Positions 1 through 38,192 of a stretch of DNA of 64,000 bases are shown in pieces. The notes beneath the pieces were generated by a model. The model was not told the origin of the DNA. It did not search any database and saw nothing but the letters and a program-made list of their open reading frames with translations. Each line of letters starts with the position of its first letter. The stretch's first letter is position 1. Source of the DNA: an uncultured Planctomycetota bacterium (lineage in GTDB: Bacteria > Planctomycetota > Planctomycetia > Isosphaerales > Isosphaeraceae); NCBI GenBank assembly GCA_963823665.1, contig CAWGMQ010000008.1:1568001-1632000 (forward strand), in the 5' to 3' direction. Both the position numbers and the translations under genes were made by a program.

Positions 1-396
1 CTTGCGTTTGACGGGCTCGGTTTGCTGGGCGACCCAGACTTCGCCCATTCCGCCTTCACCGATTCGCCGTTCGAGAGTGTAGCGCCCCGAGATGACGACG
101 CCGGCCGAGGCACCCTTCTCTCGGAGGGCGGCGGCTGCGAGAATCGACGCCGGATCGGGCCCCGGGGTGAGCACTTCGGTGAGATCGCTGCCAAAATGCG
201 GTGCGTTCGAATCGATGGTCGCCCCGACATCGCCTCCTGGCAGGTCGAGGAACCCTCCCGTAGCTTCATGCGTGGCCAGAAGCCCCTCGACGGTGGCACG
301 GAGGTCGGGTTTGCCGGCGCAGGCTGCGTCAAGGAACGCGGTGCGCTCAGCGGGCGGTTTGTCCAGGGCATCGCGCAACAGCGTTTCTTCGTTCAT
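1..396 (-). CDS. Ser/Thr protein kinase, N-terminal part (runs off window start)
   Basis: Not in the ORF track. Manual translation from ATG at 396 (AGGAG RBS) gives MNEETLLRDALDKPPAERTAFLDAACAG...GRYTLERRIGEGGMGEVWVAQQTEPVKRK: glycine-rich loop plus the planctomycete STK N-terminus. Confidence 0.9.
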   Translation of the reverse strand, partial: MNEETLLRDALDKPPAERTAFLDAACAGKPDLRATVEGLLATHEATGGFLDLPGGDVGATIDSNAPHFGSDLTEVLTPGPDPASILAAAALREKGASAGVVISGRYTLERRIGEGGMGEVWVAQQTEPVKRK

Positions 397-11192: not shown

Positions 11193-12986
11193 TCATAAGC
11201 TCGGGCGCTTCTTGAGCCCCAGGCTATCCAAAAAACCGGGGCTGTCGAGCACCAGCGGCGCCATCAGCAGATCGGGTGCACTGGCCGCGGACGCCGCGAC
11301 GATCGCACCGCTCGCGCCGTTCTTGGTCACGTTAATGGCGCTGGTCACGGCTGTGCTGAGACCGCTGCTGGAGACCCGAAGAGTGTACCCGGATCCCACC
11401 TTGTTGATCTTCAGTCCCGAGAAGGCAACTACACCCTGGCTGGCTAAAATAGAAAATGTGCCACTGAGAGTGGCTCCGGTCGGGTTGCTCGCAAGGGCCA
11501 TGCTGACGGTATTCCCCGCAGTCGTCACCACATTGCCGTACTGGTCCTCGATCGAGGCTTGCAGACCGAAGCCGCTATTCACCTTAACCGTGGCTGGCGG
11601 CTGCTGCGTGATGACCAACTGCGCGGCCGCTGCGGGGGTGACGGTGATCGAGTTGGTGACGCCCCAGCCCAAGCCGCCGCCGGAGGCCTCGAGCGTGTAC
11701 CCCGAGGCCGTCTTGGTGAGCGTCAGACCGGAGAAGGTGGCGATGCCGTTCGATGCGGTCGCGGTCAGCATGCCGCCGAGGGTGGCGCCACCGGGGTTGT
11801 TTGCCAGGGCCACTGTCACCGTGCCATCGAACGAGGTAATCGGGTTGCCCGAGCTGTCCTCGGCGTCGACCGTAAGGCCGAAGAGGCTACCTGCGGTGAC
11901 GCTGGGCGGTGGTTGCTGGGTCACCACCAGTTGCGAGGTGGTCAGGGTGGCGACGCCGATCGCATTATTGGCGTAATCCGTGAACCAGAGGTTGCCGTCG
12001 GGCCCGGCGGCGATTTGATTGAGGCCGTCGTCAATGGGATACTCGGAAATCGCGTCGGTCGCTGGGTTGATCGAGCCGATCTGGCCAGCGGCCGCCTCGG
12101 TGAACCAAAGGTTCCCATCGGGGCCCAACGTGATCCCGTAGACATTAGACTTGGCCGTCGGGACGGGGTACTCGGTGATGGCATCTGTGGTCAGGTTGAT
12201 CTCTCCGATGGCGTTGCCATTGTAATCCGTGAACCAGACGTTGCCGTCAGGGCCGGGCATTATATGATAAGCGTCGGCATAACCTGATGAGGTCCCGGGG
12301 GCGTCGAAGACGGTCATGACATGGGTCGTGGGGTTAATCCGTCCGATCGTGCGGCTAGACGCGCCGGTGAACCACAGATTGCCGTCGGGACCGGCGGTGA
12401 TCCACATGGGCTCGTTCAGAAAACCGCTGGGCTTGGGGAACTCGGTAACCGCATGGGTCGTCAGGTTGAGCACCCCAATCCCGCTCCCGCCGGCGAACCA
12501 GATGTTGCCATCCGGGCCCGCCGTGATGCCGATGGGAGCGCTCTCAGGGGACGAGGAGTATTCGCTGACAGCGTGCGTGATCGTATTGATCACACCAACC
12601 TTGCCGCTGCCCCTCTCGGTGAACCAGATGTTCCCATCGGGACCGACGGCGATGCCCCAGGGGTTGGAGTTGGCTGTGGGGATCGGAAACTCGCTCGTGG
12701 CGTGCGTCGTTGGGTTGACCATCCCGATTTTGTTAGCTGAATTCTCGATAAACCAAATGTTGCCGTCGGGCCCCGCCACGATGCCAGTGGGCGCGGCTGA
12801 GGGGCTTGTGAGAGGGTACTCGTTGTAGCCGGAGATACTTGACAGCAAGCACCGCTCCTCCAGCCCTTCGAGCCGGAACCGCGCCCGCGTGTCGCCAGAG
12901 CGGCGGTGAGCCCTGCGTCGATCTCTCCCAATCCCAGCGATACCCAGACGGTCCAGGCGATTCTCAATGGTCGAGGGAACAAACAT
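11193..12986 (-). CDS. Extracellular Vgb (virginiamycin B lyase)-like beta-propeller with two Ig-like domains and planctomycete leader
   Basis: RLEGLEERCLLS leader; seven GPDGN(I/L/V)WF repeats; two QLV(V/I)TQQPP domains; GAGGAG RBS. Confidence 0.88.
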   Translation of the reverse strand: MFVPSTIENRLDRLGIAGIGRDRRRAHRRSGDTRARFRLEGLEERCLLSSISGYNEYPLTSPSAAPTGIVAGPDGNIWFIENSANKIGMVNPTTHATSEFPIPTANSNPWGIAVGPDGNIWFTERGSGKVGVINTITHAVSEYSSSPESAPIGITAGPDGNIWFAGGSGIGVLNLTTHAVTEFPKPSGFLNEPMWITAGPDGNLWFTGASSRTIGRINPTTHVMTVFDAPGTSSGYADAYHIMPGPDGNVWFTDYNGNAIGEINLTTDAITEYPVPTAKSNVYGITLGPDGNLWFTEAAAGQIGSINPATDAISEYPIDDGLNQIAAGPDGNLWFTDYANNAIGVATLTTSQLVVTQQPPPSVTAGSLFGLTVDAEDSSGNPITSFDGTVTVALANNPGGATLGGMLTATASNGIATFSGLTLTKTASGYTLEASGGGLGWGVTNSITVTPAAAAQLVITQQPPATVKVNSGFGLQASIEDQYGNVVTTAGNTVSMALASNPTGATLSGTFSILASQGVVAFSGLKINKVGSGYTLRVSSSGLSTAVTSAINVTKNGASGAIVAASAASAPDLLMAPLVLDSPGFLDSLGLKKRPSL

Positions 12987-13339
12987 CGTCGGTTCTCCTC
13001 TGCGGAAGTAGGGTGCTCGGCGAGCAAGTGGACACTTCGGGAGGCGGCGGCCGTTCCCGGACATCGGGCATCGTTCGTTCCGTTGGCCCCGTCTTCCTCC
13101 CTAGACAGGGACGACATCGCCGCGCGAATGTCCCGCGGTCGGAGATTTCCTCGCGCCCCCGAGCCACCGGACTACGCACCGGCGCGGCTCTCGGGTCGTG
13201 GGACAGTGCGACGGACCGGATCACGGATCTGCCGGCAATGTTCGTCGCGTCAAGAGCACGAACGGTCGCCCACCTCACCGTCGCGACAGAAATCTCCGCG
13301 TTCCAGCGCCAATCTTTTCCGTGTTTTTGGCGAGAATGC

Positions 13340-13728: not shown

Positions 13729-14285
13729 AGAGGTGCGTGGCGGGCGCGATGATCGCCGAGGCGCTTCGATGTGTGCTCCAAGGGCGGGTAACCGCCCCGA
13801 AAGCTCACCTCGAAGGACATGCCGCGGAGGAAAGTCCGGACTCCAAAGGGCGCGATGGTGGGTAACGCCCACCGTCCGAGGCTGTTTGTTCACATGAGCA
13901 AGCAGCACCGGATAGGGATAGTGCCACAGAAAATAAACCGCCTCGGCTGGGGTGCTTGCACCTCGGCCGGGGTAAGGGTGAAACGGCGAGGTAAGAGCTC
14001 ACCAGCAGGCCGGGTGACCGGCTTGGCTCGGTAAACCCCATCGGGAGCAAGACCAAATAAGGGGGCAGGGCACTCGAGCTGGCTTTGCCAAGCGGTTCGC
14101 CGCGATGCGATGCCGGCACGATGCACACGGATCGGCCCGGTCCGTCATGACTCCCGGGTAGGTCGCTCGAGGCGCTGGGCAACCGGCGTCCCAGAAAAAT
14201 GATCATCCGGGTTTTCCGAAGGCCGCGAGAGCGGGCGATGGAAAGCTCGACAGAATCCGGCTTAGGATGCCCGTCACGAACCTCT
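13729..14285 (+). ncRNA. rnpB: RNase P RNA, type A
   Basis: Conserved GAGGAAAGTCC, AGTGCCACAGAAA, GGTGAAACGGCGAGGTAAGAGC, GGTAAACCCC, ACAGAATCCGGCTTA; P1 helix GAGGTGCGTGGCGGGC pairs with GCCCGTCACGAACCTC. Confidence 0.97.
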
Positions 14286-17837: not shown

Positions 17838-18380
17838 ATGGCGAGTGCTAAAACGTCGTTGAGAACTTCGCGAGGCGTCACTGGTAGCGAACGGCCTCTA
17901 ACTGCGGGCGACGACGTCGCTGCGGTCTCACTTATACTGAAAAACGCAAGCGATCCAGCGCGGCTTATGGTTCTGCTCGCGCTCGCGGATGGCGAGCGGG
18001 AATCTGTCGGTCTCGCTGACTCGCTCGAAGAAGGCCTCCCGAGCTTGAACACGAATCTCGCGTTTCTTACGCATGCAGGCATGGTCGCCAGACACAGACG
18101 TGGAAACCGGCAGGTTTATTCGCTTACGACTCGCAGTCGAGGGATAACGGCACTTGTCCAAACTCTGCTTCGCGAAGAGCACGCGAAGACTTCGCTACCG
18201 ATTCCAATTGACCCAAAACTTCTGGATGATGTGCGAGGATTCGTCGACGATCCCGACGAGTGGTTCCGCACACCAAATGTCGCCTTCGAAGGACGACAAC
18301 CCATCGAATTACTTGGGACGGCTGACGAGTCGAGGCTCAGGAATCGCATCGAGGCGGCAAAGCACGGCATGTTCTCATGA
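17838..18380 (+). CDS. Antitoxin: ArsR-type HTH fused to Xre/MbcA/ParS C-terminal (DUF2384) domain
   Basis: SDPARLMVL...NLAFLTHAGMV...RGNRQVYSLT; C-terminal EWFRTPNVAFEGRQPIELLGT...IEAAKHGMFS. Confidence 0.85.
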   Translation: MASAKTSLRTSRGVTGSERPLTAGDDVAAVSLILKNASDPARLMVLLALADGERESVGLADSLEEGLPSLNTNLAFLTHAGMVARHRRGNRQVYSLTTRSRGITALVQTLLREEHAKTSLPIPIDPKLLDDVRGFVDDPDEWFRTPNVAFEGRQPIELLGTADESRLRNRIEAAKHGMFS

Positions 18381-18952
18381 AGCTCGCGGCCTGTAAGCGG
18401 CTCGGGCTGTAGTCAATTAACGGAATCTGGTATCGGGCCATCGCCGCGCGGCATTGGAAGACGGCACTCAGAACCGACCAGACCGCTGAAATCCCCGGGC
18501 GATTCAATCCGGGAAAAGCTGCGACGACGCCATTCGAGATTCTCTACCTTGCCGAGAACCAACTGGTCGCTTTATACGAGGTCCAGGCGATTTTCGGTCC
18601 ACCGCATCAGGCGATAGCCAATCCACACGAAAGCAAGCGAATCACAGTCGACACGAGCGTTCGATTGAGCTCGGTGGCGGATCTCACCGCGATCGATCAA
18701 CAGGCTCTGCTCGAAACTTCGATGCAGGAGTTGACTGGCAACTGGGACACGTACGCACCGGGCGAGGCGCCGACTCAGCGCCTTGGCAGCGCTTCATTCA
18801 GGACCAAGAACGTCGAGGGGTTTTTGGCGAATTCGGCCCGAATTCCGAAGTGCAAGACGCTGATCGTATTCCCGTAAAAACTGCGCAAAGGAAGCGAAAT
18901 CGTGTTTGAGGATCACATCACCGGGAAGGTTCACCGGATTGGTCCTCCGTGA
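18377..18952 (+). pseudogene. RES-domain toxin with two in-frame stops
   Basis: ATGA overlap with the antitoxin; one frame reads WYRAI...GRFNP...LYLAEN...LYEV...VADLT...PTQRLG...GFLANSAR...LIVFP, with TAG at 18410-18412 and TAA at 18875-18877. Confidence 0.85.
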
Positions 18953-19169
18953 TCGGTAGCTGGTCTAGCAGACTCTGGGATGGGAACTCAATTACTCGGT
19001 TAGAACCCTTGCCATATCGTGTCAGCGTTGTTGCTTTGAGCGGTTCGTTCGTGTTACCTTCGTCTGTATCCCGCGATGCCCCGACGACGAACGAGGCTCG
19101 GGCTAATTTGTCCAAGAAATCCGGCATTTTCGTGCCGTAGAAAGATTTCCTCTTCGTCGAGGATCACCT

Positions 19170-19913
19170 GTGAGCGCCGCGATCCTTCCGAAACGCGCGC
19201 TGCCGACCCAACGGCCGCGCCGCATGCGTCGTAGTGCCAAGCCGGTTGCGGAGGCCCTGGAATCCCGGACCGTGCTCGCCATCTCGATCACGGCGAGCAT
19301 CGCTGGGCTTGCGCCTGCGGTGATCAGCATCAGTCTCCCGCAGCCAAATGCCGCAGAAATGCAGGACGTTTCGCTGATTCTGAAGGCATCGACCGCGGAC
19401 GAGCAACTGGCGCGCGATGCCGCGTTCGGAAGGAGTCTGCACGACGTCAAGATCACGCTGAGCGACAGCGCGGATGGTTCGGACACGATTGAGCTGACGG
19501 ACGCTTTCATCACCTCGTTTCGGCTGATTCCGGGCGAGAGTTTGGATGAACCGGAGATCGCGCTCGACCTGGAGGGGGAAACGGGGCACACGGGCTCGAT
19601 CTCCGCAGATCTCGACGGAGTCATGCCGCGCGTGGTGAGCGTGACCATTCCGCAAGCGACGAACAGCGAGGCGGCACAGCCCATCACGCTGGTCGTGAAG
19701 CTCTCCGCGGGCCTGCCGAAGCTGTTCCAGGACGCGGCGAGCGGCAGGGTCATTCGCCAGGCCGAGATCACCCTGGACCAGATCGGCAACGGCTCGACTT
19801 ACACGATTGACCTGAGCCAGGTTTTCATCTCTTCGATCCAGTTCGTCGGCGGCTCGGGCGGGGAGATTCCCGAAGCCGAGATTACGTTGGTGACCGGCCA
19901 GGGGCGGTCGTGA
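19170..19913 (+). CDS. Planctomycete-leader protein with two tandem Hcp (T6SS tube)-like domains
   Basis: Arg-rich N-terminus plus EALESRTVLA; two ~100-aa repeats; the second contains LPKLFQDAASGRVI...YTIDLSQVFISSI...GGEIPEAEITL. Confidence 0.7.
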   Translation: MSAAILPKRALPTQRPRRMRRSAKPVAEALESRTVLAISITASIAGLAPAVISISLPQPNAAEMQDVSLILKASTADEQLARDAAFGRSLHDVKITLSDSADGSDTIELTDAFITSFRLIPGESLDEPEIALDLEGETGHTGSISADLDGVMPRVVSVTIPQATNSEAAQPITLVVKLSAGLPKLFQDAASGRVIRQAEITLDQIGNGSTYTIDLSQVFISSIQFVGGSGGEIPEAEITLVTGQGRS

Positions 19914-19980
19914 GTGAAGCCCCAACGTAAAGTCTCGCATTGGTCGCGATCGCCCACCCTTGGCGTGATGGGTAAGAGCG

Positions 19981-35613: not shown

Positions 35614-37679
35614 TCAGTCATTCGGCTGCGTGAGCGGCCCGATGCGGTGGATGTTGTTATTGATGATCACGCCGTTGCGCCCGGCGACGTCTCGCTTGGG
35701 CGACATGGCCAACACATGTGAGCGAATCCCGATCTCGAGGTGGCCGATGGGCTGACCGACGATCGACGAGTAACTCATCGACTTGAACTTGACCAGGTTC
35801 AAGTTGCCCGTGTCATTCAGGACCATGCCTGTCGCCGTGCCGCCGCGGACGGACTGTACGCTGCCCTGGATATCGATCACGGCCGTTCCCGCCAAATCGG
35901 GACGGAAGGTCTCGGAGAGGCCCGCCAGCGCGTTCGGGTAGTCGAACGTGAAGTAGCCGTTTTCCGTATCGACGGTGTTGGTGCCGCCAGAAGCGCTCAG
36001 AACCAGAGCAAGGCTTTGATCGATGCTGCCCAGGGCAGGGCCTGGAGGGCTGGTGGCCGGTTGGTCGGGGGGCACGTTGATGTAAGCGTTGAACTGTTTG
36101 ACTGCGGTGTTCGCGAGTGCAGTCAGCGAATTACTCAGGACCGAGCCCTGGCCCTTGACGGTCGCGACTGACGCCGTGCTCACGGCCTGAATGCCGAGCT
36201 GGGTCTGGTCCGGCTGTGTGCTGTCCAGGTGAGCTGCAACCGTCGCAAAGACACTGTTTGTGCCGGGCGAGCTGGTAAGTCCTCCCAGCAGCGTGAATTG
36301 CGCTTGGGGAGTGAACGGCTGCGGATTGCCGGTGGCCTGGTGGGCGATCCCGGATGAAAGGCTCGCGGGAAGGTTGATTGCGTAGAGTTGGTTGGTCTGG
36401 TAACTGCCGAGCACGGTCAAAGTGTCAGTTCCAGCGACCGAGTTGATGGGCAGAGATCCGATGAACGAACCCACATCCGTGAACGACCCTACGAACGCCT
36501 CCGAGGTTGCGTTGTATGCGTACACGGTCGTACCCGAGCTGACGAGGAGGACGCGCTGGGAGCCGTTCCAGGCCAGGTCGAGCCCGGCGGCCGCGGGATC
36601 GCCGGGGACGCTGATCGGTGGGGCCGACGTATCCACAACAGCCGTCTTCGTGTTCAGGTTGAGATCGAAGCGGATGATCTCGCCCGTCGTGGGATCGTAG
36701 CCGTAAATCTTGGGGTCGGTCTGGAGGTTAACGGCGCGCTGAGCTTGGCACCCTGGACTCGATTGACCTTGAGGATGATACCGGGCGGGGCAGGGGGCAC
36801 CGTGTAAATTGAAGACCCGGTCGGCAGCGGCTCGACGATGTTGCCGGCGGAAGCGAATTCGCCCGCGACACCGGTGAGCGTCTGCGAGCCGTTACCGTTG
36901 CTGACGTAGGTGGTGGTGACACCGCCTGGATTAGTGATCGAGGTGGATTGGAGGGCCTCGAGCGTCGTGATTGACGAAGACGAGGTGCTCGTGGTGGTCG
37001 CGAATGCACGGAATATGGTGATGGTGGCGCTGCCGCCGCTGGTGGTGCCGCTACTGCCGGTGGTGGTGCCGGAAGTCGAGCTGCCCGCAGCCGATGTGCC
37101 CACCAGCAGCGAGCTGGTCGGAAGGGTCGTGGTGGTCGACGGAGGCGGCGGTAGCGTGCGGAGGTTGATCTGGGTGTCCGCGCCGATCGAGTCGAGGTTC
37201 AACGAGTTCACACCGGGCGTCAGATTGATTCTGCCGCCATCGATCAGGTCGAACGGGCTGAGCAGGAACGACTCCGCCACGTCGCCGCCCTGGCCGCTCA
37301 AGCTGTTCGAGGCCCCGGCGGCGATGAGCCGGCCGTTCTGGATGCTCTCGAGCGGCGCATGGCCGCCCCCGCCGGTTACCGTGCCGACGATCTTCGAGTA
37401 GGCATTGGTGTCATCGTACACCAGCTCGAGTGCGCCCGAGGGAGTCAGACCGGTTCCCAGCAGGTTGCCCAACCCGACCACATGGATCACCGCGTGGCCG
37501 CGGGTGGGAGTCGTGTATGAGAAGATGCGATTGTCGCCCGAGAACACCCCGCTCGAAGCGCTAGCCGCAACAGCGGCCGCGGACGCCCGGCTGAGGAGCT
37601 TGCGTTCTTCCAACCCTTCGAGAGTGGGCCGGGTTCGTTTCGCCTGTGTTTTCCGACTGCTCGACGACCTGAGCGTCAT
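35614..37679 (-). CDS. Extracellular protein with planctomycete leader (frameshift near 36730)
   Basis: RPTLEGLEERKLLS leader; Ser/Thr-rich linker; a single missing base joins ORFs 36654-37679 and 35614-36636. Confidence 0.8.
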
Positions 37680-38192
37680 CGCGATCCTCCCGATGACCGA
37701 CTCGCCAACTGGTCACGCACCGCCACACCCGGCGGGACATCCTGGTTCGACCTCACTAATCAATTCGGCAAACGGAACCCCCGGCATAACCCAACTTCCA
37801 GGATTTCCCCACACGACGCACACTGCGGTCCAGTCATCCCGGCGACACTTAAACTCGAGCGATGAGAAAGCCGACAGCTCGAGTTTTGCGTGCTCGCCGT
37901 ATTACCCAAGCGCAGACCTCTCAAGGGCATAAGCACGGCGGGACAGCTTCATCGCGGGCTGCGAGGTGGATGTCGCGACCCCCGATTGCGTGGCGCACGA
38001 GAGCCGCACAATCAGCGTCGCCGGGCGCGATGTCCCTAGCACACGGGCCGTCGCAGGGGTAAACTCGGCGAAAACCCCTTGTTCCCAAGCGCGGGAATGG
38101 AGAGGCGCCAATCTGCATCGAGGGGATCGCGCGAAGACCATGCCGTGGGTATGGCATCGATACGAGATGACAAAGTTAAAGGAGAATCGATA

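Follow-up and report, generated by a model that had tools for sequence, protein, structure and literature searches.

What can a bacterium do with two Hcp-like domains on one chain, in a genome where no type VI secretion system (T6SS) is found? The question is raised by a gene of an uncultured soil planctomycete, located in a 64-kb window (the whole stretch of DNA analysed here). The sequence-only reading had described its product as a leader followed by two ~100-aa repeats, and had quoted a series of motifs. All of these motifs are found in the open reading frame (ORF), and the two-repeat Hcp-like architecture behind a leader is confirmed as real. The features of the locus, with the domain folds as predicted, are as follows.

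19159..19163, + strand: likely ribosome-binding site GAGGA, 6 nt upstream of the GTG start
19170..19913, + strand: ORF of 247 aa with a GTG start, encoding the leader and two trimmed Hcp-fold domains
19170..19280, + strand: Arg-rich leader, residues 1-37 (nine K/R in residues 1-36, low pLDDT), with EALESRTVLA at its end (19251-19280)
19281..19580, + strand: trimmed Hcp domain 1, residues 38-137, with beta1, beta2, beta3, helix, beta4, beta5 and beta6
19581..19595, + strand: linker of about five residues (138-142)
19596..19895, + strand: trimmed Hcp domain 2, residues 143-242, with the best PF05638 stretch at 161-238

The two repeats (38-137 and 143-242, ~104 aa each) are identical at 35 of 98 positions (36%), and their local alignment score is 152, compared with 28±5 for 1000 shuffles, the highest of which reached 55. 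The GC content at the third codon positions of the ORF is 0.81. Contigs of two soil runs, either of which is a possible source sample, are identical to the window over 19063-19237, 19322-19477 and 19724-19940. A sigma-70-like promoter was looked for at the gene and was not found. The ORF, the duplication and the Hcp sequence signature are regarded here as established, and so are the loop and hairpin losses described below and the negative outcome of the T6SS gene searches.

The Hcp signature is seen at several levels. In Pfam, the 247-aa protein scores 41 bits against PF05638 (cut-off 23.5) in two stretches, and a profile made from its trimmed relatives picks up Hcp1 of Pseudomonas aeruginosa with an E-value of 2e-5; the NCBIfam model of TssD, TIGR03344, gives no match at E<=0.5. 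An AlphaFold2 model of the monomer, based on 20 sequences, has a pLDDT of 80.6 and a pTM of 0.75, with 36 residues of low confidence. Foldseek matches this model to phage tail-tip and tube proteins, VgrG, MrkH, and Hcp, and the best ten of 48,161 chains compared by VIA-align are all Hcp (Z 10.0-11.7, rmsd 2.4-4.5 Å, 87-112 residues). A viral structure library gave tail-protein-like matches only at TM <=0.34 and with a single domain, and in the protein atlas all leads were below 0.9, the Hcp clusters at 0.85 and one unnamed cluster at 0.82. The Hcp/tail-tube fold that had been proposed for both repeats is thus supported as a prediction by the PF05638 score and by the ten best VIA-align matches. 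An Ig-like fold, the other candidate for the repeats, is ruled out by the Foldseek and VIA-align matches. With P. aeruginosa Hcp1 (PDB 1Y12), the model shares the beta-sandwich plus helix, the helix motif, and the ISS strand (Z 11.4, 108 residues at 2.6 Å). However, Hcp/TssD is one domain of ~160 aa, whereas the soil protein has two of ~104 aa and an N-terminal leader, has lost the beta1-beta2 loop, the beta2-beta3 loop, and the C-terminal hairpin, and is accompanied by no T6SS genes.

What was lost and what was kept was read by eye from an alignment to eight single Hcp proteins from T6SS-type loci, together with secondary structure; strand names are those of a review (PMC8718954). Each domain is short of ~13 residues in the beta1-beta2 loop and ~9 in the beta2-beta3 loop (the latter going from ~15 to ~5 residues), as well as of the C-terminal hairpin, and four relatives end straight after beta6.1. 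Both domains keep beta2, beta3, beta5.2, beta6.1, and the hydrophobic helix motif. According to the available part of the same review, these four strands build the 24-stranded ring of tube proteins, the beta2-beta3 loop serves in the stacking of rings, and the beta1-beta2 loop with a sheet extension makes the contact with the sheath. When the beta2-beta3 loop is deleted, tubes disappear in T5 and SPP1, and the YSD1 tube protein forms hexameric rings (PMC8718954, available part). Because this stacking loop is cut down and the sheath-contact elements are lost, a filament is unlikely to be formed by the trimmed protein, and the surface filament suggested by the sequence-only reading loses most of its appeal. 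A surface tube or filament built by polymerisation could still draw on the tail-tube fold and on the precedent of pb6 and the P74-26 tube protein, which are tandem-domain trimers that stack; given a loop of ~5 residues, whose deletion abolishes the T5 and SPP1 tubes, we consider it very improbable.

A ring is a different matter: one assembled from the trimmed domains is possible, but not assured. In its favor, the fold evidence from PF05638 and VIA-align is joined by the fact that the helix motif and all four strands of the inner barrel are still present, and, like the loop-deleted YSD1 protein, loop mutants of Burkholderia pseudomallei Hcp1 remain hexamers that no longer stack (PMC4650826, available text). 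On the contrary, in Acinetobacter baumannii Hcp the C-terminal strand touches the helix of the neighboring subunit (PMC4469607, in the part available), and this strand is missing from the trimmed domains. A second objection comes from Salmonella HilE: this homologue of Hcp has a short loop too, and it is a monomer used outside the T6SS, as the accessible text of PMC10696396 describes it. HilE resembles the soil protein in its ancestry, its shortened loop, and its role outside the T6SS, although it has one domain and acts by regulating a transcription factor, whereas the soil protein is a tandem with a leader.

The host genome (G000) has 16.46 Mb, which is very large for a bacterium, and is 91.9% complete with 3.5% contamination. 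Its sole Hcp match is the double-Hcp gene. Profile searches of this genome gave no match to TssB, TssC, TssF, VgrG/GPD, phage sheath, or gp5, with positive controls in Escherichia coli; we take the gene names TssB, TssC, and TssF to correspond to the Pfam models VipA, VipB, and TssF. Among 121 genomes of the host's family, the trimmed clade occurs in five (G000, G442, G423, G519, and G487), and TssB/TssC are found in none of these five carriers, two of which are just 61% and 78% complete. TssC is present in 72 of the 121 genomes, including 30 of the 47 high-quality ones. A calculation by hand puts the chance of TssC-free carriers at ~1%; this overstates the case, as related genomes do not count as independent and two carriers are incomplete. 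In G487, one of the carriers, contigs other than that of the gene encode a phage-type sheath and a gp5, and this, like the incompleteness, counts against a T6SS-free role. In a sample of 401 genomes of the phylum, a strong match was seen only in the host genome; four others gave weak single-Hcp matches.

Could the protein nevertheless be a component or cargo of a T6SS or another contractile injection machine, whose partner genes were missed? Its relatives are automatically named “type VI secretion component Hcp”, T6SSs are common in the family, and the genomes are incomplete. However, all six marker searches of the host genome came back blank, as did those for TssB/TssC in the carriers, TIGR03344 does not match, the sheath-contact elements are lost, and the Hcp genes in T6SS loci of the family have no leader. 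We give this explanation hardly any weight, and the T6SS independence claimed from the window alone now extends to the whole host genome. The description of the gene as stand-alone also holds, since a comparison of its neighbors with those of the four other carrier loci found nothing in common except generic weak repeat-type matches, and this context points to no ligand or partner. Two other features of the window should be mentioned. The region 17838-18952 (+) resembles a toxin-antitoxin locus, in which a gene of the ArsR-HTH/Xre-MbcA type precedes one with a RES domain that two in-frame stops interrupt, and at 13737-14281 (+) lies a class A RNase P RNA gene of 545 nt, which has long insertions relative to the 367-position model.

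The leader had been claimed to be of the planctomycete type, and this claim was borne out. The Arg-rich stretch and the ExLExRxL motif near the N-terminus are there, as in the planctomycete surface proteins with RRLxxExLExRxLLA leaders (PF07595; LEPR-XLL, NF012209), whereas the cut-off of PF07595 was missed: the leader has no match to PF07595 at E<=1 and none to NF012209. It should be noted that PF07595 fits the host genome poorly, with only one of 48 matches at E<=1 above the cut-off (150 of 512 candidates scored). On a genome-specific profile, made from 29 other leaders of the host genome (29 of 30 loci sampled), the leader scores 24.5 bits, within the leave-one-out range of 15.6-40.1 for 28 of the 29, and ranks second among the 84,537 six-frame 23-mers of the window. 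Each of the 14 relatives that were scored has the ExLExR motif, with 3.5-33.6 bits, and 12 exceed 10 bits. The soil protein differs from the PF07595/NF012209 proteins not only in falling below both cut-offs, but also in its cargo, an Hcp fold where theirs are Ig-like, propeller, and integrin domains. Two further ORFs in the window carry an ExLExR leader, at 36654-37712 (-) and 11193-13064 (-); one belongs to no Pfam family and the other is a Vgb-type propeller.

In the available part of PMC8567305, the leader motif is “thought to represent” an export signal, and in Tuwongella eight of 20 detected motif carriers were seen solely in the SDS-soluble fraction. The accessible portions of PMC10952558 and of bioRxiv 2026.03.19.712371 mention leader families and nothing beyond. 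The export route of the ExLExR-type leader itself is unproven, which counts against any exported-ring reading, and we infer export of the double-Hcp protein from its leader. Might the leader instead be incidental, on a cytoplasmic or decaying Hcp derivative? The missed PF07595 and NF012209 matches would fit such a view, as would dN/dS values that are not very low (0.43, 0.42, and 0.32 for three gene pairs) and the restriction of the gene to five of 121 family genomes. Yet the motif is kept in every relative scored and the reading frames of the trimmed clade are intact across five genera, so that we judge this alternative to be improbable. That the protein would be exported by its leader, work without a T6SS, and be unable to form a tube, all three together, seems to us quite probable.

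How, then, are the two domains arranged? T5 pb6 (5NGJ/9INY), the T5 tail-tip protein 7QG9_G, the P74-26 tube protein, and the gp27/VgrG hubs all have a duplicated tube domain per chain (PMC5717097, in its available part) and are among the top Foldseek matches. Unlike them, the soil protein has no long loops, a very short linker, no phage tail genes adjacent to it, and an export leader. The monomer model superposes on pb6 over 171 residues at 14.8 Å, on gp27 over 131 at 6.3 Å, and on the HFTV1 hub over 109 at 5.6 Å, and in the PDB and viral libraries TM stays at <=0.34. As a control, the model of P0030, a chain of six Hcp domains (pTM 0.84), places consecutive domains on T5 pb6 (245 residues, 3.7 Å) and on the P74-26 tube protein (257 residues, 4.3 Å), and its domains 1 and 6 jointly on hub proteins (174-189 residues, 4.0 Å). 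A closed ring requires just such a placement of domains 1 and 6, and the P0030 model closes in this way. A trimer built like gp27/VgrG, as had been envisaged, or like pb6 gains no support, without being refuted: the monomer model misses the two-domain superposition that the six-Hcp control achieves, and the linker has only ~5 residues. A ring made as a trimer of two-domain chains has, in our estimate, rather low odds, and a double ring made of six chains lower odds still. It should be added that the monomer model comes from a shallow alignment (20 sequences) and has no partner chains, and that pb6 and the hubs join their domains in different ways, according to the available part of PMC5717097. 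Because these two differ, a third way of linking two tube domains is possible.

The main alternative to a ring is that the two domains pack as a closed pair, giving an exported monomeric or dimeric beta-sandwich module for binding or adhesion, comparable to HilE. The arrangement of domains is predicted fairly confidently (pTM 0.75) and matches no tandem tube geometry, and the beta4-beta5 hairpin of domain 2 (207-211) sits where the last strand of Hcp1 ends (1y12_C, 37..211 to 2..138). The short linker, the lost C-terminal hairpin, the four relatives that stop after beta6.1, and the precedent of HilE point the same way. On the other hand, neither domain has lost its barrel-edge strands or the hydrophobic helix motif, the copy numbers of the clade each divide six (see below), and the model, based on a shallow alignment, represents a monomer. 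We regard this ringless module as a real possibility, at rather less than even odds.

The copy numbers were counted without 14 fragments or frame-shifted pieces and without P0026, a doubtful FG-GAP fusion. Among apparently whole trimmed relatives, one has a single domain (P0008), 13 have two (the window protein, P0003-P0007, P0009, P0011, P0015, P0019, P0024, P0034, and L008), and three have three (P0013, L009, and L010). P0008 is the protein of G487, and its NCBI label is Isosphaerales, which makes this order the likely origin of the window too. A quick tree of 86 rows and 138 columns unites the 34 trimmed domains with support 100 and keeps the six-copy chains separate from them; P0008 nests there with second domains and is therefore probably derived. 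Longer trimmed forms (619-2000 aa) were sought with the family alignment and none was found, which is weak evidence.

Outside the trimmed clade, all 11 matches longer than 950 aa in one search have six Hcp domains. A six-domain query over 587-1869 aa gave six domains in 29 of 35 matches, a count that the query itself biases; the other six are four proteins of four or five domains that seem truncated at one end, a degenerate repeat, and a single-domain match. Among 36 six-domain proteins in all, 23 have an ExLExR-type leader and five have RTX-like repeats. The six-copy domains of one lineage group together in the quick tree, hinting at several origins of the six-domain chains.

Six-domain proteins: P0020, P0022, P0023, P0029-P0033, P0035, P0038, P0040, P0047-P0074
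L071:3413-7012: six-domain protein
L037:1276-1848: leader-bearing Hcp outside the trimmed clade
L038:1171-1881: the same
L075:2986-4146: the same
L076:2108-3181: the same
L072:1997-5554: the same

The leader-bearing Hcp proteins outside the clade, all from the same family, include single-domain forms (in G442, G429, G453, and G456) and one with four domains followed by a repetitive stalk-like region (in G466). A six-domain leader protein is encoded in G402, and both G402 and G466 have TssC. A strict rule that the copy number always divides six is ruled out by the four-domain protein of G466, although repeat collapse in the assembly is possible. P0076, a leader protein of 1355 aa, consists of numerous short strand motifs that derive from Hcp (AGKVSxQDxHFSS, YKIxLEDVLVSS) and that seem to have been re-patterned into a repeat. 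The six-Hcp chains resemble the soil protein in having several Hcp domains per chain, often behind an ExLExR-type leader. However, they have full-size domains (median period 173 residues, compared with 104-105 in the trimmed protein), long linkers, a clade of their own, and a model that closes a ring, so that they are an analogy and not close kin.

The reading that we prefer, with a probability of about 0.45, is that the trimmed double-Hcp protein, whose fold is predicted, is an exported non-stacking ring used as a binding or scaffolding module. Its planctomycete-type leader would bring it to the envelope or the surface of the cell without the help of type VI secretion; there, the retained barrel-edge strands would allow assembly into a single ring that does not stack, and this ring would serve as the binding or scaffolding module. 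Copy numbers of one, two, and three in the trimmed clade, six domains in most of the long matches elsewhere, and the P0030 ring model are consistent with such a ring, as is the contrast between TssB/TssC-free carriers and a family in which TssC is common. Against it stand the fit of the monomer model to no known tandem geometry, the separation of the trimmed clade from the six-copy chains in tree and period, and the four-domain protein of G466.

We also speculate that exported ring modules arose from the T6SS tube subunit on several occasions within the planctomycetes. In the trimmed clade, the minimal version without any of the stacking and sheath contacts, chains with one, two, or three copies would combine by six, three, or two into a six-domain surface ring, and in other lineages one six-domain chain would do the same. 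We hold this wider scenario to be unlikely as it stands.

No published description of a leader-bearing or tandem Hcp was found, nor of single chains with six Hcp domains, among the openly accessible papers searched. Our verdict is that the double trimmed Hcp behind a leader is a real and undescribed variant of the Hcp fold. The presence of Hcp is used to recognise type VI secretion, and the relatives of this protein are annotated accordingly; here, the fold occurs where no such machine is found. As a small (247 aa) and likely soluble cargo, the protein may be useful for probing the unproven ExLExRxLL export route of the planctomycetes. It also amounts to a naturally occurring deletion mutant of those loops that are believed to govern ring formation versus stacking, with behavior of the YSD1 type (rings) or of the HilE type (monomer) as the two outcomes. 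If the minimal six-domain surface ring is true, it would be the smallest natural ring of the tube fold and a surface device free of the T6SS.
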